64,000 nt of DNA from Patescibacteria group bacterium (GTDB lineage Bacteria > Patescibacteriota > JABMPQ01 > JAQVVF01). The notes below the pieces were generated by a model. That model did no database searches, had not been told where the DNA came from, and saw nothing but the letters and a program-made list of their open reading frames with translations. The DNA is taken from positions 4,603 through 68,602 of the forward strand of contig JBAZSC010000003.1 of assembly GCA_041662665.1 (NCBI GenBank), written 5' to 3'. Every line of letters begins with the position of its first letter. The stretch's first letter is position 1. A program made the translations under genes and the position numbers. Below, piece after piece: positions 2,564 to 56,801 of the stretch.

Positions 2564-3154
2564 ATGAGCACTTTAAAAAATTTTATTTTTTTGTTTATTG
2601 GAGGGAGTTTGTGTTTTATGGGTTATACTTTTTTTGTGAGTAATTTGAACATATTCCAGAGAATAATAGGTTTTTTACTTCTAACAATTTTTGTATTTAT
2701 TTTTGTGAAAATAACAAGGTATGAATATAGAAGTTCGAATTTTGTTAAAAATGTGCAAACTTTTGTTACAGGGAAAAAGCATTTTTGGAATTATTGTGAA
2801 TGCCATAAAAATGAGATTAGTGAAACGGCAAAATTATTGTTTGTATCAAGTATAGTAATTGGAATTTTTGATTTGTTTCTTTCTTTGTATATTTCTATTA
2901 ACTATGACATTATTGATGGATTATTTTTCTTCTTTTTATGTATGTTAATTGTTATGATTTTTGGAGTAAGTGCTGAATATGTAAGAAGATCAGATCAGAA
3001 ATATGCACATTTGAAAGATGAGAATCAAAAATTGCTGAAGCGGAAAGCAATTATTAAAGTTATTCATATTAATCCTGTTCAAGCAGGTCCTAATTTTGGC
3101 AGATATTTTTCAATTCACAATAAAAGAAATGAAAAAGATTATGGTCCTAATTGA
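2564..3154 (+). CDS. Hypothetical integral membrane protein
   Basis: Multiple hydrophobic helices; no recognisable motif. Inserted between rpsG and fusA. Confidence 0.5.
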   Translation: MSTLKNFIFLFIGGSLCFMGYTFFVSNLNIFQRIIGFLLLTIFVFIFVKITRYEYRSSNFVKNVQTFVTGKKHFWNYCECHKNEISETAKLLFVSSIVIGIFDLFLSLYISINYDIIDGLFFFFLCMLIVMIFGVSAEYVRRSDQKYAHLKDENQKLLKRKAIIKVIHINPVQAGPNFGRYFSIHNKRNEKDYGPN

Positions 3155-14406: not shown

Positions 14407-14715
14407 ATGACGATAAAGAAAGGCGACAATGTATTAGTAATATCTGGTAAAGACAAAGGCAAGGTTGGCAAGGTGCTTTCGGTTTTGCCAAAAAAAGGTA
14501 AAATTATTGTTGAGAATGTTAATAAGATGGCAAAGCATGCTAAATCAAAAAGGCAAGATAAGAAAGGTCAGAAAGTTCAAAAAGATATGCCGATTAATAT
14601 TTCTAATGTTTTGTTTAAATGCCCAAAATGTAATAAGGCTGTTAGAACTGGAGTGAAGATTGGTGAAGAAAAGAAAAAATTTAGAATTTGCAAGAAATGC
14701 AAGGAAACTATCTAA
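14407..14715 (+). CDS. rplX: 50S ribosomal protein L24 (KOW domain), with a C-terminal Cys4 zinc-ribbon-like tail
   Basis: IKKGDNVLVISGKDKGKVGKV KOW motif, plus CPKC...CKKC. Confidence 0.88.
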   Translation: MTIKKGDNVLVISGKDKGKVGKVLSVLPKKGKIIVENVNKMAKHAKSKRQDKKGQKVQKDMPINISNVLFKCPKCNKAVRTGVKIGEEKKKFRICKKCKETI

Positions 14716-14752
14716 GTTATAAAGTTAATAAAGTTTTTAAAGTTATAAAGTA

Positions 14753-15465: not shown

Positions 15466-15651
15466 ATGGCACGACTGGCATTAATCGCAAAAGCAAAAAA
15501 GAAACCTAAATATTCGACTCGTATTGTAAGACGATGTGAATTGTGCGGCCGAAAACATGGATATATGAGACGCTATGGAATGTGCAGAATTTGTTTTAGA
15601 GAGCTTGCTAGTAAAGGTGAAATTCCTGGAGTAAGAAAGGCATCATGGTAG
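15466..15651 (+). CDS. rpsZ: 30S ribosomal protein S14, zinc-binding type Z
   Basis: 61 aa with CELCGR...CRIC zinc ribbon. Confidence 0.93.
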
Positions 15652-15694
15652 TTTTAAAGTTATAAAGTTTTTAAAGTTATAAAGTACTAAACAT

Positions 15695-21333: not shown

Positions 21334-21371
21334 TTTTTAAAGTTATAAAGTTATAAAGTTTTTAAAGTACT

Positions 21372-22645: not shown

Positions 22646-22649
22646 TTTT

Positions 22650-22717
22650 TTGTGGATAATATTTTATTCTAGACATGGTATACTTAGGTTATCTAAAGAT
22701 AGGATAATAAAACAAAA
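22650..22717 (+). promoter_or_regulatory. Conserved upstream region shared with the paralogous surface-protein gene at 45442
   Basis: ttttgtggataatattttattctagacatggtatacttaggttatctaaa is about 90% identical to 45372-45422; contains a TATACT -10-like hexamer. Confidence 0.55.
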
Positions 22718-25708
22718 ATGTTTTCGAAACGAGCAGGAAAAAATCAAGATCGAATTCTTGAAAAAGTAGGTTTTTTTAGTATTTCAAAATGCAAGATTCT
22801 TTTGAGTCTTTTTTTTGTTTTGGGAGTTTGTTTGTTTATGACGGTAAGGGTAAATGCCGCTTCGACTACATATTATGTTGATGCAACAGGTGGATTAGAT
22901 ACAAATAATGGGACTTCAGTTAGTACACCATGGAAGACAATAACTAAAGTAAATACTTCAATGGATTCTGCCACAATAAAAGCTGGTGATTTTGTTTATT
23001 TTAAACGAGGCGAAACTTTTACAGGATATTTAGATGTTGATGTTACTGGGACTGCTGGAAATATTTTGACTTTTGGCGCTTATGGAGATGGAAATAAGCC
23101 AATTATTAATGCAACTGGTAATAATCGTGCTATTGATGCAAGAACCAATATGTCTTATATAACTTACCAAGATTTAACTGTACAGAATGGAACCACCGAT
23201 CAATTTTTTATCTATGATAGTGCTACAAATATTACTATCAATAATGTAACTATTTCTGGCGGAGCTACAGGTATAAATATTATTACTGGTACTTTTGCTG
23301 ATATCTCTATTACTTCTACTGAAATATCGAATTATACCGGAACAGGAATAGCATTATATAGTGTAACTGGCGGCGGAACAAATATTACCATTGATGGAGT
23401 AACTGAAAATTCAGGTACTGGAACAAGAGGAATCTACATTAGCGCAGGAACATGGAATGGCATTGACATCCTAAATTCAGTATTCAGCAACCATAGTGCA
23501 CAAGGCATACAAACCGCATCATCAGTTGTAAATGATCTGACGATAACTGATGTTACTGCTTCAAGTAATAACGGATATGGTGTGTACTTGGGAGGGAGTG
23601 GTTCAAATTATGATATACATGGTTTGACTGCCAACTCCAATGGCTCTACTGCAGACTATGACGGATTATATCTAAATACTTCATCCAGTTCTTTAAGTAA
23701 TATTACTATTGAAGAAAGCGAATTTAACAGCAATGATGGAAATGGATTAGCATTCGCCAGTACCGGAAGCACTAGCTCCGTTTTATCTACAAACGCTTCA
23801 AGCAATGATGGTGATGGATTTAATATTCATAATGCTTGGACTGATTTAACATTTAATAATTGTATTGCAAATTCTAATGGCCTAGTCGGCCAGTCAGGCG
23901 CAGGCGATGGTTTTTCTTTTCACGAAACAAGTACTGGTACTATTAGAAATAGTATTGCTCAAGATAATATGAAATCATCAGTTGCAAATGTAGGAAGTGC
24001 TCAGGTTGTAATGTATAATAATCTTTTTTCTCATACAACTAATGGTACTCTTGCTCTTGTTTATTTGTCAGAAACAGGAACATATTCGCTATATAATAAT
24101 ACTATTTATAGTGCAGGGCATATAGGGTCTGGTCTGAACGTTGTTGGACCGACTCTAGATGTAAAAAATAACATAATTTATGGTTTCGATATTGGGTTTC
24201 AGAAAACTTCTGGTACTATTACTGAGGATTATAACGATGTATATGGCGCAACTACAGCCAATTTCAGTGGTCTTACTCCAGGCACTCATTCTCTTCAGCT
24301 TGATCCAAAATTAAATAATCCGCCAACTGATTTTTCTCTTCAGTCAGATTCTCCTGCAATTGATTCTGCCTACGATACAAGTATCACCACAGATTATGCC
24401 GGCAAGCAAAGATACGATGATCCAGACGTAGCAAACACCGGAGCAGGAGCAGTACCATATTATGATATGGGAGCTTATGAATATGTTCTTCCACCAGATC
24501 CAATATTTACATCATCATCTCATCCATCGCAATCATCTTGGTATTCAAATACAACAGTCAATATGTCATTGTCATCTAATGGATCTTCAACTACTAATTA
24601 CTATTATCTTGTCAATCAAAATGCAACACCAACTAAAGCAGAAGTCTTAGCTGGTACATTTGATGCTGACGGTATTTTTACAGTAACAATTTCATCTGAT
24701 GGTCAATGGTATATTCATACCATAGCTGTTAATTTAGATAATGATCCGTCAACAAACTACAGCAGCTATTTAGTCCAAATTGACACAGTACCTCCATCAA
24801 TTCCAGGTACTCCTTCAACATCTTCGTTAACAAACAACAACAAGCCAGAATGGACATGGACAGCATCAACAGATGCAACTTCAGGACTAGGTGATCCAGC
24901 TTACAATGTACAATGGTGTGATAATTCAAGCTTTATTGGTTGTGATTTAAATATCTCAACTTCAACAACAAATTCTTTTACTCATTCAATTGCTTTGGCT
25001 GATGGCACTTGGTATTTCAGAGTTCAAGCTATTGATAAAGCTGGAAATACTTCTGATTGGTCAGCTTCAGGTACTGATACAATTTTGACAGTTATTCCTT
25101 TTAACGAAAAAATTAATCTTAAAGATGCAGTTTTAAATCAAACCTATCAAAGCCAACAAAACAATGTAGATCTTCTTTTTTATCTTCTGCCAAAACAGAA
25201 AACAATCAAAGATTTATACATCAAATTAATTAGAAACAAGAAAAAACATCTAAATGGTTTCACAAAGAAAAACAGCTATCCAGGATATCTCAAGCTATTA
25301 TCAAACATCGGCACAGTCAAAAAAGCCTATCAGAAAAATGTTAACAAACATATTAATTTCAGAGTTTCAGTAAGATATTCAAAAACAAAATTAAACAAGA
25401 CGAATATTAAAGAAAAGAATCTAAGACTATTTATTAAAGATCGAGATGGAATATGGCGAGGGCCATACCGAATTTATCAAAACAAAACAACTCATACTCT
25501 AAAATTTAAGATTAGAAACTATTTAGTTAGACAGCCGAAAAACCCAATTCCAAATCCTTTAGATGTTAAGACTAAAAACAGACCATTTGCTCCAACATTT
25601 TACTTTAGAACATTAAAAAAGATTAAATTCGTAATTGCTGAGAAGAATGCCTTATCTAATTTAACTAATTTGGAAACATCGGATAGCCAAGATTTCTTTT
25701 TTGAATAA
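22718..25708 (+). CDS. Large secreted surface protein: leader, right-handed parallel beta-helix region, Ig/Fn3-like region, conserved basic C-terminal domain (~200 aa)
   Basis: 996 aa with a hydrophobic leader FFSISKCKILLSLFFVLGVCLF. Repeated N..T/G-rich beta-helix rungs (pectate-lyase-like). C-terminal 200 aa about 95% identical to the C-terminus of the 45442 gene. Confidence 0.8.
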   Translation: MFSKRAGKNQDRILEKVGFFSISKCKILLSLFFVLGVCLFMTVRVNAASTTYYVDATGGLDTNNGTSVSTPWKTITKVNTSMDSATIKAGDFVYFKRGETFTGYLDVDVTGTAGNILTFGAYGDGNKPIINATGNNRAIDARTNMSYITYQDLTVQNGTTDQFFIYDSATNITINNVTISGGATGINIITGTFADISITSTEISNYTGTGIALYSVTGGGTNITIDGVTENSGTGTRGIYISAGTWNGIDILNSVFSNHSAQGIQTASSVVNDLTITDVTASSNNGYGVYLGGSGSNYDIHGLTANSNGSTADYDGLYLNTSSSSLSNITIEESEFNSNDGNGLAFASTGSTSSVLSTNASSNDGDGFNIHNAWTDLTFNNCIANSNGLVGQSGAGDGFSFHETSTGTIRNSIAQDNMKSSVANVGSAQVVMYNNLFSHTTNGTLALVYLSETGTYSLYNNTIYSAGHIGSGLNVVGPTLDVKNNIIYGFDIGFQKTSGTITEDYNDVYGATTANFSGLTPGTHSLQLDPKLNNPPTDFSLQSDSPAIDSAYDTSITTDYAGKQRYDDPDVANTGAGAVPYYDMGAYEYVLPPDPIFTSSSHPSQSSWYSNTTVNMSLSSNGSSTTNYYYLVNQNATPTKAEVLAGTFDADGIFTVTISSDGQWYIHTIAVNLDNDPSTNYSSYLVQIDTVPPSIPGTPSTSSLTNNNKPEWTWTASTDATSGLGDPAYNVQWCDNSSFIGCDLNISTSTTNSFTHSIALADGTWYFRVQAIDKAGNTSDWSASGTDTILTVIPFNEKINLKDAVLNQTYQSQQNNVDLLFYLLPKQKTIKDLYIKLIRNKKKHLNGFTKKNSYPGYLKLLSNIGTVKKAYQKNVNKHINFRVSVRYSKTKLNKTNIKEKNLRLFIKDRDGIWRGPYRIYQNKTTHTLKFKIRNYLVRQPKNPIPNPLDVKTKNRPFAPTFYFRTLKKIKFVIAEKNALSNLTNLETSDSQDFFFE

Positions 25709-25886: not shown

Positions 25887-26624
25887 ATGATCATGAAACT
25901 TTCAGTAGTAATTCCGGCATACAATGAAGAAAAAAGAATAACAAAAACTTTAGAATCAGTTAATGAATATCTGACAAAACAGGATTTTGATTATGAGATT
26001 TTAGTTGTTGCTAATAATTGTACAGATAATACTGATAAAGTTGTTTTGGATTTGAAAAATAAAATCAAAAATTTAGAATTAATGGATATAGGCGCTGGAA
26101 TACCTGGGAAAGGTGGAGCAGTAAAAGTTGGTTTTTTGAAGGCACAAGGCGAGTACATTATGTTTATGGATGCGGATAATGCAACAAAAATTAATGAATT
26201 AGATCATTTTTGGAATTATTTTGATGAAGGTTATGATATTGTAATTGGTTCGCGTGATACTAAAGGATCAAAAGTTGTTGTTTCTCAAGCTTGGTACAAA
26301 GAATTAGCTGGAAAAATAGGTAATTTATTAATTCAAATTGTGGCCTTACCTGGAATTCATGATACTCAATGTGGATTTAAAATTTTTAAACAAAAAGTTG
26401 TAAAAGACGTTTTTCCAATACAAAAATTAGGTGGATGGGGATTTGATATTGAAATTTTAGCTTTAGCAAAGAAATTTGGTTATAAAATAAAAGAAGAACC
26501 TATTACTTGGTTTAATGCTGTTGGTAGTAAAGTAAGTATGGGTGATTATCTACATGTTTTTTCTGATTTATTTAAAGTTAGGTGGTGGTTGTGGACTGGA
26601 GTTTATAAAGTTAAAAAGTTATAA
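25887..26624 (+). CDS. Family 2 glycosyltransferase, polyprenyl-phosphate sugar synthase-like (DPM1/GtrB/ArnC type)
   Basis: VVIPAYNEE N-terminus, DAD motif (FMDADN), and QCGFK near the C-terminus, as in GT2 Dpm1-like enzymes. Confidence 0.85.
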   Translation: MIMKLSVVIPAYNEEKRITKTLESVNEYLTKQDFDYEILVVANNCTDNTDKVVLDLKNKIKNLELMDIGAGIPGKGGAVKVGFLKAQGEYIMFMDADNATKINELDHFWNYFDEGYDIVIGSRDTKGSKVVVSQAWYKELAGKIGNLLIQIVALPGIHDTQCGFKIFKQKVVKDVFPIQKLGGWGFDIEILALAKKFGYKIKEEPITWFNAVGSKVSMGDYLHVFSDLFKVRWWLWTGVYKVKKL

Positions 26625-26642
26625 AGTTCATAAAGTATTGCT

Positions 26643-42323: not shown

Positions 42324-43400
42324 ATGCAAAAATATATACTAGTTATAAATTCAGGTTCAACTTCTTTAAAATACAAATTATTTTTAGAGACTGATTTAAA
42401 GATGATTAGATCTGGATATATTGAACACATTGGTGAAAGTGAAATTAAAGATCATGAGCAAGCTTTTGGAATAGTTTTGGAAGAAATCAAAGATTATAAA
42501 AATGATATTGTAAAAATTGGACATCGAGTTGTGCATGGAGGAACTAAGTTTGTAGAGCCAACAAAGATTGATGAAAACGTTTTGAAAGAATTAGAAGAAG
42601 TAAGTAAATTAGCGCCATTACATAATCCAGCAAATTTAATGGGAATTAAGGCATCTATGAAATTATTGCCAAATGTTTTAAATGTTGCTGTTTTCGATAC
42701 TGCTTTTCATCAAAGTATTCCAGAAAAAGCGTGGAGATATGCGATTGATGATAAATATTTTAAACAATATGGAGTGAGGCGATATGGATTTCATGGGATA
42801 TCACATGAATATGTTTGTGGACAAGTTAAAAGTCAAAAGTCTAAAGTCAAAAGTAACAATTCAAAATTAAAAATAATCTCCTGCCATCTTGGTGGTGGAT
42901 GTTCGGTTTGTGCTATTTCTGATGGCAAATCTGTTGATACTTCGATGGGATTTACGCCACTTGAGGGATTGGTGATGATGAGCAGATGTGGTGATATTGA
43001 TCCAGCAATAGTGACATATTTGCAGAAAAAAGAAAATTTAAGCGTTGATCAAATTGAAGAAATTTTGAATTTTAAATCTGGAATTTTTGCATTATGTGGT
43101 GAGACAAATTGGTTGAAAGTTTTGGAACGTGTTAAAGTTAATGATAGATTAGCAAAAATGGCTTTTGATATTTTTGTTTATAGAATAAAAAAATATATTG
43201 GTAGTTATTACGCAATTTTAGGCGGACTTGATGTTTTGGTTTTTACTGGATCAATTGGATCTGGAGATGCTTTAACTCGAGAGGCTGTTTGTGACGGTTT
43301 GCCATTTTTGGAAAATGTTGAAGTGACGGCGATTAAGACGGATGAGGAAATGATGATCTCTAGGAAAATTCTAAGCACTAAATTCGTTAAAAGCTTCTAA
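42324..43400 (+). CDS. ackA: Acetate kinase
   Basis: ILVINSGSTSLKYKLF N-terminus, HLGGG, and ASKHD-family fold. Small Lys/Ser-rich insertion (SQKSKVKSNNSKLK). Confidence 0.88.
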   Translation: MQKYILVINSGSTSLKYKLFLETDLKMIRSGYIEHIGESEIKDHEQAFGIVLEEIKDYKNDIVKIGHRVVHGGTKFVEPTKIDENVLKELEEVSKLAPLHNPANLMGIKASMKLLPNVLNVAVFDTAFHQSIPEKAWRYAIDDKYFKQYGVRRYGFHGISHEYVCGQVKSQKSKVKSNNSKLKIISCHLGGGCSVCAISDGKSVDTSMGFTPLEGLVMMSRCGDIDPAIVTYLQKKENLSVDQIEEILNFKSGIFALCGETNWLKVLERVKVNDRLAKMAFDIFVYRIKKYIGSYYAILGGLDVLVFTGSIGSGDALTREAVCDGLPFLENVEVTAIKTDEEMMISRKILSTKFVKSF

Positions 43401-43450
43401 GGTCGCTTTTAACTTCTAAGCAAATTCAAAGAACAAAAATATAAATATAC

Positions 43451-43550
43451 GAAGAGGCTCAGCCTTTTATTTAAATTGTTGGTTTGTGTTTTTAATAAAG
43501 TTGATTTTAAATGTAATTGCTTAGTTTTTTTAATAAAAGGCTGAGCCTCT
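43451..43550. repeat. Long-range inverted repeat directly upstream of recJ
   Basis: aagaggctcagccttttatttaaa ... ttaataaaaggctgagcctctt (about 19-bp stem, about 55-nt loop). Confidence 0.5.
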
Positions 43551-43557
43551 TAAGATT

Positions 43558-45293
43558 ATGCAAAGACTTTGGCAGGTAAAACAAAAAATAAGTGAAGATT
43601 TTATTAATAAATTTCCAGAATTTGATTCTGTGATTTTGCAATTGTTATTTAATAGAGGAATTGATAATCAGAAAAAGATTGATGAATTTTTTAATCCAGA
43701 TTATTCAAAAAATTTATTTGATCCATTTTTATTGAAAGATATGGATCGAGCGGTTGAAAGAATTTTTAAGGCATTAAAGAATAAAGAAAGAGTTGGAATT
43801 TTTGGTGACTATGATGCTGATGGCGTAACATCATCTGTTTTATTAACAGAATTATTTAAAAAAATTGGTTTGGCTGGGCAAGTTTATATTCCTGATCGAG
43901 TCTCTGAAGGCTATGGAATGAATAAGAAAGCAATTGATTGGCTAGCAAAAAAAGATATTAAATTGATTGTCAGTTGTGATTGTGGTGTTTCAAACAAGGA
44001 AGAAATTGATTATGCAAAAGAAAAATATGGAATTGATTGCGTAATTACTGATCACCATCATGTTCCTATAGATTTTGATAAAAAATATATTGTTGTTGAC
44101 TCAAAAAGAAAGGGTGATAAATATCCATATAAAGAGTTGGCGGGTGTTGGCGTTGTTTTTAAGCTGGCTCAGGCATTGATCACTCGAATTAATTTTCGAA
44201 TAAAAGCGAATGAATTTTCGAATGTTAAACTTGAAAATGGTTGGGAAAAGAGTTTGCTTGATTTAGTGACGATTGGCACGATTGCGGATTGTTCGCCGAT
44301 TATTTCGGAGAATAGAACATTGGTGAAATATGGATTAAATATTATAAAAGAGACTGAAAGAATTGGTTTGCAAAGTTTGATGCAAGTAGCTTGCGTTGAT
44401 CCAAAATTAATTAATAGCGACAGAATCGGTTTTGCAATTGCGCCAAGAATTAATTCAGCTGGCAGAATGGATCATGCTTCGGCATCGTATAAACTTTTGA
44501 TTACAGAAGATTTGGAAAAAGCAGTTTGGTTGTCTAAAAAAATCGATAAGACAAATTCAAGCCGGCAATCTTTGACAAGTAAATTAGTTGATGAGGCAAA
44601 AAAGAAAATTGGCGATGTCAAAGATCAAAAAGTATTAATGGCATCTGGTGGAAATGGCCTTTGGGCGTTGTAGGTATTGTGGCTGGCAGGATTTGTGAAG
44701 AATATAATCGGCCAACTTTGATTTGTGGTAAGGGCTTGATTGAATCTGTTGGATCAGCTAGAAGTATTCCTGCTTTTGATATTATTGACGCTATTTCTTC
44801 TTGTAAAAATTTGTTATTAGAATATGGCGGACATAAACAAGCAGCTGGCTTTTCTTTGAAAAATGAAAATTTTGAAAAATTTCATAAAAAATTAGAAAAA
44901 ATTGCAACAGAAAAAATAGATGAAAAAGATTTACAGCCAGTAATTGAAATTGACAGCGAAGTTGATTTTAAAGATGTGAATTGGAATTTGTATGAAAGAT
45001 TATTAGATTTTGAACCTCATGGAATTGGAAATCGAAAGCCGGTTTTTTTGGCAAAAGATATTCAAGTTATTAATGCTTATCCTGTTGGCAAAACAAAAAA
45101 GCATTTAAAAATGAAAATTAAGTCTAATTCCGATAGTCGGATTTTTGATGTGATTGGTTTTAATCATGGACATAGAGTAGAGGAGTTAAATAAAAAAGGT
45201 AAAATGGATATTGTTTTTAATTTGGATTGTAATGAATGGAATGGAGAAAAGATTTTGCAGTTGAGACTTGTTGATTTTAGGATTTCACTCTAA
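43558..45293 (+). pseudogene. recJ: Single-stranded-DNA exonuclease RecJ, split into two ORFs (43558..44673 and 44661..45293) by a frameshift near 44650-44662
   Basis: N-terminal ORF carries DHH motifs (GDYDADGVTS, ITDHHH). C-terminal ORF carries DHHA1 (GGHKQAAGF). The canonical ...WxPGVVGIVAGRI junction appears as WKWPLGVVGIVAGRI in the shifted frame. Could be a real pseudogene, a sequencing error or a slippage site. Confidence 0.7.
44181..44230. repeat. TCGAAT-rich repeat inserted in-frame within recJ
   Basis: cactcgaattaattttcgaataaaagcgaatgaattttcgaatg encodes ITRINFRIKANEFSN. Its 22-nt core aattttcgaataaaagcgaat recurs at 45296 just after the recJ stop. Confidence 0.65.
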
Positions 45294-45295
45294 TA

Positions 45296-45360
45296 AATTT
45301 TCGAATAAAAGCGAATTCATTAAAAAATTTCTATTCAAAATTTTTTAATTCGAATGATGT
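45296..45360. repeat. TCGAAT-rich repeat, intergenic copy
   Basis: aattttcgaataaaagcgaattcattaaaaaatttc...aattcgaatg. Confidence 0.6.
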
Positions 45361-45371
45361 TCCGATAACTT

Positions 45372-45441
45372 TTTGTGGATAATATTTTATTCTAGATATG
45401 GTATACTTAGATTATCTAAAATTGGTATAATTAAAACAAAT
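45372..45441 (+). promoter_or_regulatory. Conserved upstream region shared with the surface-protein gene at 22718
   Basis: ttttgtggataatattttattctagatatggtatacttagattatctaaa, about 90% identical to 22650-22700. Confidence 0.55.
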
Positions 45442-47856
45442 ATGTATTTTTTTAATACAAAAATAAACAAAAAAGTACGAGGGGGGGGGCTTAATGGAAA
45501 GGTAAAATTTTTTAGTATTTCAAAATACAAGATTCTTTTGAGTCTTTTTTTTGTTTTGGGGGTTTGTTTTTGTTTTGGTAAAATAACGTTTGCTTATCCA
45601 CCCTATACACCAAATTCTGATTTAGTTGTTGTGGGTCCTTATGATACTGCACCAACAAGTGGAGTAAAAAATATAGGTGATGGAGTAGGCGATGGAGTTG
45701 CTAAACGTTATTGGTTAAACGGCGGTCAAAAATACAGAATTCGGCAGAATGGAACCATTAGTAAAGCTAAGGTCTGGGTACCAAACTCTAATGGAACATT
45801 TACTTTTTTTCAAATTCAAATATGGAGACCAAATGGAACAAATTTTGATTTAGTAGGAGAATCGGAAAATTTTTATTCTTCAATTACAAAAAATCAAGTT
45901 AATGAGATCACTTTATCTTCTCCTATCTCCAATGTTCAAGAAGGAGATTATTATGGAATTGTAATTTCGATGAATGGTGATACTGGGTCAATGTATGCAA
46001 GAAGTGGTTTGACCGGAGTCAATCTATACTATACTTCGACGACGCCTAGTGATACTAATTATAATTGGTTGGCAAATTCTAAACTATCAGGATATGCTAT
46101 TCCACTAGAATTATATATGCAAGCGCCACAGGGTGTTTTTATCGGTGATTCTATTGTGGCTGGTCATCCTGCTAATTATAGTTTCTTAGAAACTACAGCA
46201 ACAACAGATATTAGTTCTACTATTGAGAAACAATTTAGTAATCTTACAGGATATACTTATCAAAATATGGGTATTGGTTCACAGACAACTTCTAACATAT
46301 CTGCTCGTTTTACCAATGATGCATTAAATTTAAAACCTAGATTTATAGTAGTTGAAGGAGGAGTAAATGATTTAGCTGGAAGTGTAGATAAGTCTGTTTT
46401 TATTGCAAATTGGACGAGCATGTTGGATGCGGTACAAGCAGATGATGATATAACAACAATAATAATTTTGAAAATCTTACCTTGGACAGATGGAACAAAT
46501 ATTCAAATGCAAACTAGAGATGATTGGAACGCATCATTAGTTACTTTGTCATCAGGATATTCAAAGGCTATAGTTGTTGATGCGAGTACTTATGTGGGGC
46601 AGTTTCGTGCAGGTGGTGATGTTGGAAATCTTTGGGATATACAACTCGCTTATGATGAGTCGGGAGTACATTTTAATCAAGCAGGAAATTCTCAAATAGC
46701 ACAAGCAATTGCCGATGCATTAGATAGTGATGCTCCAGTTACAACTGCTCTTCCATTAGGGGGAATATATAACAGTTTTAAAACAGTAACTTTATCTTGT
46801 GATGATGGTAGCGGACAAGGATGTAATAAAACATATTACACAATTGACGGGACAGATCCAACTACAAGCTCACCTGAATATACTGTTCCTCTAGATATTT
46901 CTTCTAATACTACTTTAAAATTCTTTTCAGTTGATGTTGTTGATAACCAAGAATCAGTAAAAACAGAAGTTTATGTTATTGACACAGAATCACCAGTAAC
47001 AACTGCTACTCCAGCTGGTGGAACATACGATAGCGTTCAAGTAGTTACTTTGACAACAGATGAAGCAGCAACAACATATTACACATTAGATGGCACAGAT
47101 CCAACAATTTTATCGTTAGTCTATTCTTTGCCAATCACAATTTCTGAAACATCAGTTCTTAAATTTTTTTCAGTTGATAATGTTGGAAATTCCGAAAGTG
47201 TAAAAACTGAAGAATATATTATTAATACTGAAGCTCCATTTATTCCTTTCATTGAAAAACTTAATTTAGAAAACGTAATTCTAAATCAAACCTATCAAAG
47301 TCAACAAAACAATGCAGATCTTCTTTTCTATCTTCTTCCTAAACAAAAAGTAATCAAAGATCTATATATTAAATTAATCAGAAACAAGAAGAAACACCTT
47401 AATGGTTTTACAAAAAAGAATAGTTATCCAGGTTATTTAAAACTATTATCAAATATTGGTACAGTAAAAAAAGCTTATCAAAAAAATGTTAATAAGCATA
47501 TTAATTTTAGAGTCTCTGTTAGATATTCTAAAACAAAATTAAACAAGACTAACATCAAAGAAAAGAATCTAAGATTATTTATTAAAGATCGAGATGGTAT
47601 TTGGCGAGGACCATACAGAATTTATCAAAACAAAACAACTCATACTCTAAAATTTAAGATTAGAAATTATTTAGTTAGACAACCGAAAAATCCTGTTCCA
47701 AATCCACTTGATGTCAAAACAAAAAATAGACCATTTGCGCCATCATTTTACTTTAGAACTTTGAAAAAGATTAAATTCGTAATTGCAGAGAAAAATACAT
47801 TATCTAAATTAACAAATTCTGAAACATCGGATAGCCAAGATTTTGATTTTGAATAA
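45442..47856 (+). CDS. Large secreted surface protein: leader, SGNH/GDSL hydrolase domain, two CHB_HEX_C-like (chitobiase/beta-hexosaminidase C-terminal-like) repeats, conserved basic C-terminal domain
   Basis: Leader FFSISKYKILLSLFFVLGVC matches the 22718 gene. GDSL block VFIGDSIVAG, block III GGVNDL and block V DESGVHFNQAG. Tandem ~80-aa repeats (YYTIDGTDPTTSS... / YYTLDGTDPT...). C-terminal 200 aa about 95% identical to the 22718 protein. G9 tract at 45481-45489. Confidence 0.8.
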   Translation: MYFFNTKINKKVRGGGLNGKVKFFSISKYKILLSLFFVLGVCFCFGKITFAYPPYTPNSDLVVVGPYDTAPTSGVKNIGDGVGDGVAKRYWLNGGQKYRIRQNGTISKAKVWVPNSNGTFTFFQIQIWRPNGTNFDLVGESENFYSSITKNQVNEITLSSPISNVQEGDYYGIVISMNGDTGSMYARSGLTGVNLYYTSTTPSDTNYNWLANSKLSGYAIPLELYMQAPQGVFIGDSIVAGHPANYSFLETTATTDISSTIEKQFSNLTGYTYQNMGIGSQTTSNISARFTNDALNLKPRFIVVEGGVNDLAGSVDKSVFIANWTSMLDAVQADDDITTIIILKILPWTDGTNIQMQTRDDWNASLVTLSSGYSKAIVVDASTYVGQFRAGGDVGNLWDIQLAYDESGVHFNQAGNSQIAQAIADALDSDAPVTTALPLGGIYNSFKTVTLSCDDGSGQGCNKTYYTIDGTDPTTSSPEYTVPLDISSNTTLKFFSVDVVDNQESVKTEVYVIDTESPVTTATPAGGTYDSVQVVTLTTDEAATTYYTLDGTDPTILSLVYSLPITISETSVLKFFSVDNVGNSESVKTEEYIINTEAPFIPFIEKLNLENVILNQTYQSQQNNADLLFYLLPKQKVIKDLYIKLIRNKKKHLNGFTKKNSYPGYLKLLSNIGTVKKAYQKNVNKHINFRVSVRYSKTKLNKTNIKEKNLRLFIKDRDGIWRGPYRIYQNKTTHTLKFKIRNYLVRQPKNPVPNPLDVKTKNRPFAPSFYFRTLKKIKFVIAEKNTLSKLTNSETSDSQDFDFE
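45481..45489 (+). repeat. Homopolymeric G9 tract inside the 5' coding region (codes RGGG)
   Basis: gggggggggc in a roughly 30% GC genome; absent from the paralog at 22718. Confidence 0.9.
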
Positions 47857-47975: not shown

Positions 47976-48326
47976 ATGTTAACTAAAACAGATCTAAAAT
48001 CAATAGCTGGCTTGATAAATAAAAGCGCTAATGGTTTGGAAAAAAGACTAGATAAAAAGATTAATAATTTAGACAAAAAATTTGATAAAAAGTTTGATTC
48101 TTTTGCAATTATGGTTCAAAAAGGTTTTGAACATGTTGATAAAAGATTTGAAAACATCGAGCAAGATATTTCAGTAATGAAAACAAGTATTTCAAAAATA
48201 GAGACAGATGTTTCTGAAATGAAAATAAGACTTTCAAAAATAGAGACAGATATTTCTGAAATGAAAGAAGATATCGAATATTTGAAGCAAAAATTGATTG
48301 TAGTTGAAGAAAAATTGATTATTTAG
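47976..48326 (+). CDS. Hypothetical coiled-coil protein with an internal 30-nt tandem repeat
   Basis: SKIETDVSEMK / SKIETDISEMK repeat; direct DNA repeat at 48189-48265. Confidence 0.45.
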   Translation: MLTKTDLKSIAGLINKSANGLEKRLDKKINNLDKKFDKKFDSFAIMVQKGFEHVDKRFENIEQDISVMKTSISKIETDVSEMKIRLSKIETDISEMKEDIEYLKQKLIVVEEKLII

Positions 48327-49050: not shown

Positions 49051-49618
49051 GACTCAAGTAAGTTGAGTGATTGCTCTGTACATGGTTTGCAAAAATTATG
49101 TGCGGAGAGGAAAGTCCGGGCATCATTTGGAGGTTGGATGTGAGAAATGGGAAATGGGAAAAGAAAAATTCTCATTTTCTCATATCCCATATCCAACTTC
49201 CAATTTCGTGGTAGTTCCGAAATGGAACCAAGTATAAGAAATTGCTAACTGCTAATAGTTTATAGCTAATAGTTGATAGTTGTTTCGAAGCTAGGACCAG
49301 TGCCACAGAGACGTAAACTACCGGGGAACTAGTAACTAGGAAACTAGTAATTAGGGAACTGGAAAAGGTGAAAAGAGTGGTGTAAAAGACCACAGATTGT
49401 CATGGTGACATGGCAATGGGGTAAACTCTACCTGATGCAACCCAATATAAACTGGGGCATGAATTGTCAAGCAATTGACAATCCAGAGAGATAATCACTG
49501 AATCTCTAATTTGCACTAATTTAGCACAAATAGCACGAATAACTATTTGTGAAATTCGTGATAAATTTGTGCCTATTAGAGATTCTACAGAACCTGGCTT
49601 ATAGACTTACTTGAGTCA
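49051..49618 (+). ncRNA. rnpB: RNase P RNA (bacterial type A), unusually long at about 568 nt owing to AT-rich helix expansions
   Basis: P4 strands GAGGAAAGTCCGGGC (49087-49101) and ACAGAACCTGGCTTA (49588-49602). Conserved AAGGTGAAAAGAGTGGTGTAAAAGACCAC. 13-bp P1 pairing gactcaagtaagt / acttacttgagtc. Confidence 0.85.
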
Positions 49619-55511: not shown

Positions 55512-56639
55512 ATGCGAATTGCAATTGACGCTCGTTTCTTTGGTCCCTTTGGAAAAGGCCTTGGGCGTTATACTGAAAAATTAATAAAATATTTAGAAAA
55601 AGTTGATCAGAAAAATGATTATACTATTTTTTTGCGTAAAGAAAATTTTGATTATTATATAGTTGAAAACAAAAATTTTAAAAAAGAATTGGCTGATTTT
55701 AAATGGTATACATTAAATGAGCAAAGAAATATGCCAAAAGTTTTGAAAAAAGGTAATTTTGATTTAGTCCATTTTCCGCATTTTAATGTTCCATTATTTT
55801 ATAAAGGCGATTTTGTAGTAACAATTCATGATTTGATTCTGCTTGATTTTCCAACAAAAAGAACAACTACGCTTGGACCGATAAAATATGCCTTAAAAAA
55901 TATGGCTTATAAAAAAGTTATTAGCTCTGCAGTTAAAAAAGCAAAAAAAGTAATAACAGTTTCCGAATATACTAAAAAAAGATTAATAGAGCATTTTGAT
56001 TTAGATGATGATAAAATTGTGGTAACATATGAAGCTTGCGAGAAAATTCATCCAGAAAAAGAAGTGATAAATAAAGATTTTTTAAGAATGCATAAGATTG
56101 AAAAGAATTATCTATTGTATGTTGGCAATGCATATCCGCATAAAAATCTTGAAAGATTATTGAAAGTTTTTAAAAATTTAAGAAAAGATAATTTTGATTA
56201 TCAGCTTGTTTTAGTTGGAAAAAATGATTATTTTTATCAAAGATTACAAGATTTAGCAAAAGAGTTAGGATTGCTAGATTCTAACCAAGTTGTTTTTTAT
56301 GGTTTTGCTAAAGATAGCGATCTTGCTACTTTATATCAAAATGCATCTTTATATGTTTTTCCATCTTTTATTGAGGGTTTTGGTTTGCCACCTCTTGAAG
56401 CAATGAGCTATGGTTTGCCAGTTGTAACTTCAAAAACTTCTTGTTTGCCAGAAATTTTGGGAGATGCAGCGCAATATTTTGATCCAAAAATAGAGAAAGA
56501 TATTGCTGATGTCATTTTAAATGTTATTAATGATAATATTTTAAAGGAAGAAATGAAGAGTAAGGGCTTAGAGCAAGTGAAAAAATATAGTTGGGAAAGA
56601 TGTGCAAAAGAAACGTTAGATGTGTACGAGAGTTTATAA
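55512..56639 (+). CDS. Glycosyltransferase family 4
   Basis: EGFGLPPLEAMSYGLPVVTSKTSCLPEI. Confidence 0.82.
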   Translation: MRIAIDARFFGPFGKGLGRYTEKLIKYLEKVDQKNDYTIFLRKENFDYYIVENKNFKKELADFKWYTLNEQRNMPKVLKKGNFDLVHFPHFNVPLFYKGDFVVTIHDLILLDFPTKRTTTLGPIKYALKNMAYKKVISSAVKKAKKVITVSEYTKKRLIEHFDLDDDKIVVTYEACEKIHPEKEVINKDFLRMHKIEKNYLLYVGNAYPHKNLERLLKVFKNLRKDNFDYQLVLVGKNDYFYQRLQDLAKELGLLDSNQVVFYGFAKDSDLATLYQNASLYVFPSFIEGFGLPPLEAMSYGLPVVTSKTSCLPEILGDAAQYFDPKIEKDIADVILNVINDNILKEEMKSKGLEQVKKYSWERCAKETLDVYESL

Positions 56640-56801
56640 AGTTATAAGGTTATAAAGTTGGAGCATTATTCATGCTCTATTTTTTTTGATAAAAATATGT
56701 TATTATAAATTCGCGAATAGACACAAATGAAGCACAAATTTCACTAATGAATATCTGTGTATTTGTGTGATTTGTGCTAGAATAGTGCAAATTCGAGATT
56801 C

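Follow-up and report, generated by a model that had tools for sequence, protein, structure and literature searches.

A nine-guanine tract in the 5' coding region of a Patescibacteria surface-protein gene is a candidate phase-variation switch

The stretch of DNA analysed here (the window) comprises 64,000 nucleotides (nt) of a metagenome-assembled genome (MAG) of a Patescibacteria group bacterium (GenBank assembly GCA_041662665.1, contig JBAZSC010000003.1, positions 4,603 to 68,602 of the forward strand), and our subject is a run of nine G (G9) close to the 5' end of one of its genes. The gene, located on the + strand at 45442..47856 and delimited from the list of open reading frames (ORFs) and from Pfam matches, codes for a predicted secreted SGNH/GDSL hydrolase of 804 amino acids (aa). 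This protein is identical to the NCBI entry MFA6296650.1 (P0001), from a Patescibacteria MAG contig of 211,616 bp. It is made up of a long signal peptide, an N-terminal domain, the SGNH/GDSL hydrolase, two CHB_HEX_C/Fn3-associated domains and a basic C-terminal module (Pfam E-values of 8.4e-17 for Lipase_GDSL_2 and 6.7e-36 for CHB_HEX_C_1), and the SGNH/GDSL profile matches exceed the curated cut-offs (PF13472, 62.7 bits for a cut-off of 32.9; PF00657, 25.4 for a cut-off of 23.6). The signal peptide, the hydrolase and the CHB_HEX_C/Fn3-associated domains, along with the signal peptides borne by stand-alone forms of the C-terminal module, are what one would look for in the surface product of a contingency locus, and the protein is predicted to be surface-exposed or surface-modifying.

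The N-terminus of the protein, MYFFNTKINKKVRGGGLNGKVKFFSISKYKILLSLFFVLGVCFCFGKITFA, has a long N-region of positive charge ahead of a hydrophobic core, and this core and the predicted cleavage region (ILLSLFFVLGVCFCFGKITFA, + strand, 45532..45594) form a leader also found in a paralogue located elsewhere in the window. The paralogue, a beta-helix protein of 996 aa encoded on the + strand at 22718..25708, has no G tract and provides an internal control: it shares with the SGNH gene an aligned ATG column, the signal peptide and the C-terminal module, and has an unrelated stretch devoid of any G run between its ATG and the FFSISK motif. Alignment of the two 5' regions also revealed a common block immediately upstream of both genes (+ strand, 45370..45441, with the paralogue copy at 22647-22717), which is ~72 nt long, ~90% identical between the two family genes of the window and includes an exact match of 27 nt, at 22647 and at 45370. 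The NCBI annotation of the source MAG uses the same start, ATG 45442, and because of this agreement, and because the tract-less paralogue has a homologous ATG behind the same upstream block, the comparison speaks for this ATG being the genuine start.

Two extended -10-like motifs, TGGTATACT (45399-45407) and TGGTATAAT (45423-45431), are found within the upstream block, the second ending ~10 nt ahead of the ATG, and they may act as promoter elements. A simple consensus scan returned weak matches alone, at chance frequency. No Shine-Dalgarno sequence precedes the ATG of either family gene of the window, strong Shine-Dalgarno sequences being found by a crude scan in just 4 of the 61 window ORFs. 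The mRNA of the SGNH gene may have a very short leader or none, and the position of the -10-like motif combined with the lack of a Shine-Dalgarno sequence suggests near-leaderless transcripts and co-regulation of the family.

The G9 homopolymer itself is located at 45481..45489 on the + strand, where the letters of the window read AAAAAAGTACGA, then GGGGGGGGG, then CTTAATGGAAAGG. It corresponds to codons 14-16 of 804 (residues G14-G16 of MYFFNTKINKKVRGGGLNGKVKFFSISKYKILLSLFF) and falls between ATG 45442 and the hydrophobic core, that is, within the positively charged N-region of the signal peptide. Such a run is highly unusual in this DNA, as shown by a homopolymer census of the entire 64 kb (31% GC; 19.7% G and 11.3% C). 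Only four G runs of five or more were observed where ~15 would be expected, meaning that G runs are depleted, and none has a length of 6-8, so that the G9 is the sole G run longer than five; the number of runs of nine or more expected per window is 0.023 under zero- or first-order models. GGG is also the rarest glycine codon of the window (50 out of 1,284, or 3.9%). Of 107 Gly-Gly pairs just two are GGG-GGG, both of them within the tract, all of the other Gly-Gly-Gly triplets (10/10) use mixed codons, and the probability of three GGG codons in a row calculated from codon usage is ~6e-5. The G9 run is real and not a product of chance. Its length is in the range typical of contingency loci (about 7-9 G/C or more), and it is over-represented, as the tracts of such loci are, with respect to both base composition and codon usage.

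To follow the reading frame, the tract was swapped in silico for G5 to G14. Tracts of 6, 9 and 12 G give the full-length protein, so that the G9 would be a slippage tract presently at its ON (in-frame) length. The frames of G7, G10 and G13 meet a TAA at 45492-45494 and end in ...GGA* (the G10 product being ...RGGGA*), while those of G5, G8, G11 and G14 meet another TAA at 45503-45505 and end in ...LMER* (...RGGGLMER* for G8), the region with the two out-of-frame stops (+ strand, 45492..45505) lying directly past the tract. All of these off-length products are only 16-22 residues long. The subsequent in-frame starts (TTG 45538, TTG 45556 and GTG 45631) are within or past the hydrophobic core, and a restart after the frameshift would therefore be unable to give an exportable protein. 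A non-triplet change in tract length consequently stops translation by 16-22 codons without any usable restart, as expected for a tract in a switch-competent position. ATG 45494 opens merely a 3-codon out-of-frame mini-ORF (ATG-GAA-AGG-TAA, 45494-45505), which ends at the second of the two TAA codons. The idea that the G tract might serve a start further downstream as its Shine-Dalgarno sequence was considered as well and rejected, there being no in-frame ATG, GTG or TTG before the hydrophobic core. RNA folding near the tract indicated that the G9 can pair with a U8 in the signal-peptide codons, with a marginal z of -1.8 that we do not take as evidence for a structure.

A previous reading of the same letters, made without database searches (the sequence-only reading), had described a G9 at 45481-45489 coding for RGGG between the start codon and the hydrophobic leader, had considered it improbable by chance and absent from the paralogue at 22718, and had proposed that the gain or loss of one G would shift the frame. 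Direct reading bears out the first of these points, the census and the codon counts the second, the alignment of both 5' regions the third and the in-silico series the last, G8 and G10 both ending early.

The tract is not confined to one gene. It is embedded in a conserved leader block (+ strand, 45469..45507; AAAAAAGTACGA-G9-CTTAATGGAAAGGTAAAA) encoding KKVRGGGLNGKVK, a motif found at the head of the closest homologues of the SGNH protein: P0002 (MFA6296113, 1,127 aa), P0003 (MFA6296820, 796 aa) and P0007 (MFA6296560, 1,317 aa). Since these accession numbers lie close to one another and to that of P0001 (MFA6296650), the four proteins would be paralogues encoded by one MAG rather than orthologues belonging to separate genomes; the contigs concerned (645, 136 and 258 kb, with the window contig of 211 kb) add up to ~1.25 Mb. 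The tract lengths of the three sister genes in the MAG are deduced from the proteins, a G9 at the DNA level being the presumed state in each of them. Exact-protein look-ups for P0001 (in its 804-aa and 827-aa forms), P0002, P0003, P0007, the N-terminal recJ fragment and P0129 gave no record. The leaders ahead of the block are of two types, MYFFNTKIN- and MDN[FL]NI[IN]-, and past the block the signal peptide of P0003 differs from those of its sisters. Because the sequences diverge on both sides of it, the conserved unit is a short block of ~39 nt around the tract, found as a single copy within the window. In P0003 the block provides the only positive charges of the signal-peptide N-region, which again speaks for ATG 45442 as the start.

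Beyond the block, what unites the family is the basic C-terminal module of ~203-204 aa (+ strand, 47245..47853, with the paralogue copy at 25097-25705), common to all five MAG family genes with ~93% identity. The module has no Pfam match, its AlphaFold (AF2) model is unusable (mean predicted local distance difference test score of 43), and it may be a cell-surface anchoring domain. Out of 1.84 billion proteins, an exhaustive HMMER search with this module retrieved only 18 cluster representatives, some of them stand-alone secreted forms of 228 aa from another Patescibacteria MAG; no relative was found among the species-representative genomes scanned with it, and a scan of viral contigs gave no match. 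None of the 11 family members newly retrieved from other genomes has a Gly motif, and their signal peptides are of the ordinary short kind. As the fifth paralogue and these 11 proteins lack the motif, the tract block is, judging from these comparisons, an addition specific to this lineage, made to four of its five family genes, and no conserved protein feature. The degenerate tract pattern also hit one locus among species-representative genomes (L004), which we discarded as a chance match, being an interrupted GGCGGG inside a minus-strand gene of an unrelated genome.

To look for other alleles of the tract, we searched the JGI metagenome contigs with a degenerate, gap-tolerant pattern open to any tract length and to non-homopolymer Gly codons. 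A single contig matched, L003 (Ga0172379_10051331), which bears a gene of the P0003 type: the 616 codons that follow the tract are open, and all 616 encoded residues are identical to those of P0003. An MGMT-family gene adjoins the P0003 gene both in L003 and in the MAG (MFA6296821 beside MFA6296820), with one residue different in L003. L003 therefore represents the same locus in a near-identical strain, since it shares both the MGMT neighbour and an identical P0003 ORF. The tract of L003 is a G10, so that the KKVRGGG frame ends in ...RGGGA* and the long ORF is out of frame. A possible length polymorphism is thus indicated at the sister P0003 locus, by a G10 on one contig compared with a MAG length deduced from the protein.

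Taken together, these data make it somewhat probable, in our judgement, that the G9 is a phase-variation tract acting by slipped-strand mispairing (a simple-sequence-repeat switch), one of at least four on a lineage-specific family of surface proteins. Translation would start at ATG 45442, and with 9 G (or 6 or 12) the ribosome would read KKVR-GGG-LNGKVK into the hydrophobic leader, allowing the protein to be exported. Replication slippage adding or removing one G would bring translation to a stop by 16-22 codons at either of the two out-of-frame TAA codons and, with no usable restart codon before the hydrophobic core, the gene would be OFF. With this ~39-nt block at the 5' ends of no fewer than four of the five genes, and with each tract switching on its own, a clonal population could display as many as 16 different combinations of the surface proteins. 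That length changes are frequent, reversible and adaptively used is a presumption of this model. The phase-variation proposal of the sequence-only reading is accordingly borne out in part: position, rarity, frame effects and the out-of-frame G10 allele of the sister gene speak for it, while variation in the length of the window tract itself was not observed. That reading had also specified what should count against it. A fixed G9 across strains is not what we find, the sister tract of a near-identical strain being a G10, nor are the Gly codons conserved without a homopolymer, relatives outside the lineage having no Gly motif at all.

Several observations weigh against a simple switch. The window locus was recovered in just one other assembly, the Logan contig L005, which matches window positions 43390-45462 save one base and ends 18 nt before the G9. 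Length variation rests on a single contig, L003, set against a protein-level estimate for the MAG sister tract, and a homopolymer miscall in either assembly is conceivable. L003 has no ATG, GTG or TTG upstream of its tract in any frame; lacking an upstream ATG, it would therefore not be switched back on by slippage alone. Its leader of ~45 nt differs from the MAG allele at many positions, and the L003 allele is no simple one-step phase variant. Finally, all four visible leader-bearing genes are in frame; OFF copies would be annotated as pseudogenes and hence be invisible to protein searches.

The leader of L003 deserves attention of its own. Compared with L006, an ENA contig with the MAG-type MGMT allele that ends 38 nt before its tract, L003 differs at a single position over the first 1,701 nt, and changes cluster from position 1702 onwards. 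The segments compared were 1702-1745 of L003 with 1702-1715 of L006 and with the N-terminus of P0003, MDNLNIN in the MAG being replaced by NDNLKRT in L003. Divergence between near-identical strains is thus far greater in the ~45 nt just 5' of the block than in the kilobases on either side. The simplest idea is a possible gene conversion between the leaders of paralogues. It can further be imagined that the block is a portable switch cassette (poly-G plus two out-of-frame stops) spread by gene conversion to the 5' ends of most family genes and coupled with a hyper-divergent leader of ~45 nt that gains or loses the start codon, giving two layers of control (slippage and leader exchange); we regard this extension as speculative and rather unlikely. 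The ends of L005 and L006 near their tracts were set aside as signs of heterogeneity, a leader repeat in common with P0007, or low coverage, explaining them equally well.

The main alternative to a switch is that the homopolymer is incidental, having arisen once and been copied by duplication or gene conversion, as a Gly linker or as a cluster of rare codons (CGA GGG GGG GGG) slowing early translation, with slips being merely deleterious. Under this hypothesis it would be natural that the four visible copies are all in frame and that the flanks are conserved together with the tract, as if the whole block had been copied; GGG being the rarest Gly codon, the tract is indeed a rare-codon cluster near the 5' end, and the L003 allele, with its missing start and its frameshift, resembles a damaged 5' end more than a clean phase variant. 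However, neither a Gly linker nor a rare-codon ramp needs an uninterrupted homopolymer, in a genome where G runs are otherwise avoided, and the family does without the motif in the fifth paralogue and in other genomes. Stops are found directly past the tract in both alternative frames, and the L003 ORF has not decayed over 616 codons. Tracts of this length are moreover intrinsically unstable in the model organisms in which rates were measured, according to PMC3401435. We consequently hold an incidental origin to be unlikely, though it is the alternative that deserves most consideration.

More doubtful still is the possibility that the block is a recombination joint, at which leaders bearing a promoter and a start are exchanged over ~39 nt by gene conversion or site-specific recombination, the poly-G being part of the site. 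The block is conserved where paralogue sequences diverge on both sides, the leader of ~45 nt differs between the two near-identical strains (including the loss of the ATG in L003) in spite of a single difference in the first 1,701 nt upstream and 616 identical residues downstream, and two independent assemblies break in the leader segment. Yet no convincing inverted repeats were found around the block (AT-rich low-complexity inverted matches only), the 64 kb contain no second or inverted copy of it, and Pfam scans revealed no recombinase, invertase or reverse transcriptase within ~10 kb on either side. The upstream MGMT gene is the same in both strains, without any rearrangement of context, and the divergent leaders are still recognisably homologous, differing by local substitutions and indels only, while the contig breaks could be explained by repeats shared among paralogues or by low coverage.

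It is very improbable that all strains have one true tract length and that the difference between G9 and G10, or the G9 itself, is a homopolymer miscall: at least one single-base indel does set the MAG apart from another assembly (a missing T in recJ, ~44649), but the tract is internal to its contigs and its flanks agree in two independent assemblies, four paralogues keep their frame, which is not expected of random miscalls, only 1 of the 61 window genes is disrupted although A/T runs of 5-8 nt number in the hundreds, and L003 shows further substitutions relative to the MAG allele, hence being a distinct allele.

The recJ gene (43558-45293), just upstream of the SGNH gene, is the one split by this missing T, into ORFs of 371 and 210 aa (GGTGG in the window, GGTTGG in L005). 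RecJ is intact, at 578 aa, on L005 and on a JGI contig of 5.4 kb. The split is either a real inactivating mutation in the MAG strain or a consensus error, and it bears on the trust to be placed in single-base counts of this MAG.

Phase variation by slippage at the G9 tract can be set beside several known systems. In Neisseria, the poly-G tract of pilC is reportedly located in the signal-peptide-coding region, as Jonsson et al. are said to have found in 1991. Genic G(9-20) tracts such as those of pilC and pglA are described as established phase-variable loci of Neisseria (PMC5953494), and the present tract resembles that of pilC in being a genic run of at least nine G close to the 5' end of a gene whose product is surface-associated, where a frameshift of one base would turn expression ON or OFF (PMC5953494). 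According to the same source the pilC tract is found on two paralogous copies, a further likeness. The block described here, of ~39 nt, is common to at least four genes with differing catalytic or binding domains. The present proteins, in addition, are unrelated to PilC, come from uncultured Patescibacteria and are known here only as sequences.

Campylobacter jejuni has, like the present MAG, a low-GC genome (~30% GC). In ~29 of its loci a polyG/C tract reaches a length of at least seven (PMC4965091). The modal length of polyG/C tracts is nine in this species, and the rates of switching measured for those of G8 and G9 are high (Bayliss et al. 2012, PMC3401435). As each genome has several tracts that vary independently, combinatorial phasotypes result (PMC3401435), a further likeness to the family described here. 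Both systems have in-ORF tracts in surface-related genes of a genome in which G/C homopolymers are otherwise rare, and the G9 equals the modal length. The C. jejuni tracts differ in being carried by unrelated genes, mostly for glycan-modifying enzymes, rather than by a single paralogous family with shared flanks, and in that mutation rates were measured there, while the tracts reported here were found by sequence analysis alone.

Mycoplasma hominis is a host-associated bacterium with a small, low-GC genome, in which Zhang and Wise reportedly described in 1997 a poly-A tract in the 5' coding region of the adhesin gene vaa causing reversible frameshifts. Like the G9, this homopolymer follows soon after the start of a surface gene, and it differs in being poly-A and in belonging to a single gene. 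The vsa and vsp surface-gene families of mycoplasmas switch by site-specific recombination at an expression site and have a conserved short 5' coding sequence, some copies being without a start codon. The conserved 5' coding block and the start-less L003 allele recall these families, which differ in that no inverted repeats, no recombinase (within ~10 kb on either side) and no rearranged context were found here.

The neighbours of the SGNH gene within ~10 kb on either side are glycolytic genes, ackA, recJ, RNase HI, the RNase P RNA gene and a polysaccharide cluster. The RNase P RNA match (bacterial class A, 49055-49617) spans 563 nt for a model of 367 positions, which implies large insertions. 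Just downstream of the SGNH gene, an ORF of 116 aa (47976-48326) encodes a coiled-coil-like protein with a tandem repeat of 42 nt (14 aa; 2.5 copies, 48164-48274). Its exact sequence is absent from the protein collection, and a 116-aa gene is found at the matching position on the Logan contig L001; allelic variation in the 14-aa repeat is no more than a possibility. All 61 ORFs of at least 120 aa are on the + strand, the one with the strong excess of G over C (19.7% vs 11.3%).

The only other G/C homopolymer of six or more in the window is a C7 at 2399-2405, in a GC-rich intergenic stretch (2370-2440) between ORFs 1836-2252 and 2564-3154. We rejected it as a second switch, since it lies between genes, away from gene 5' ends, and has no Rfam match, nor does the region fold significantly (z = -0.27). 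An 8-nt unit (AAGTTATA / TTATAAAG), repeated in short tandem arrays of 3-5 copies, also recurs between genes across the window, for instance at 2323-2370, 14714-14751, 15650-15685, 21338-21360, 26603-26636 and 56634-56659, and may be a genome-wide regulatory or terminator-associated repeat.

Patescibacteria, or Candidate Phyla Radiation (CPR), are bacteria of very small size, many of which live as episymbionts, and it is through their surface proteins that they probably attach to host cells and become exposed to phages. To our knowledge, little is known about surface variation in these organisms beyond diversity-generating retroelements, and full-text literature searches on Patescibacteria, CPR or Saccharibacteria turned up no case of phase variation mediated by repeats. 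The mechanism proposed here is a textbook one, and would extend a known system to a new phylum without introducing a new principle. If the tracts do switch, the four genes would make up a small phasome that is easy to score and has as many as 16 states, and metagenomic read sets could show whether the stochastic surface switching practised by pathogens also occurs in uncultured ultra-small bacteria. Should the tract-bearing block prove to be a switch cassette, it would represent the first contingency-gene system described in the CPR, providing its host with a combinatorial surface repertoire possibly relevant to host-cell attachment or phage evasion.

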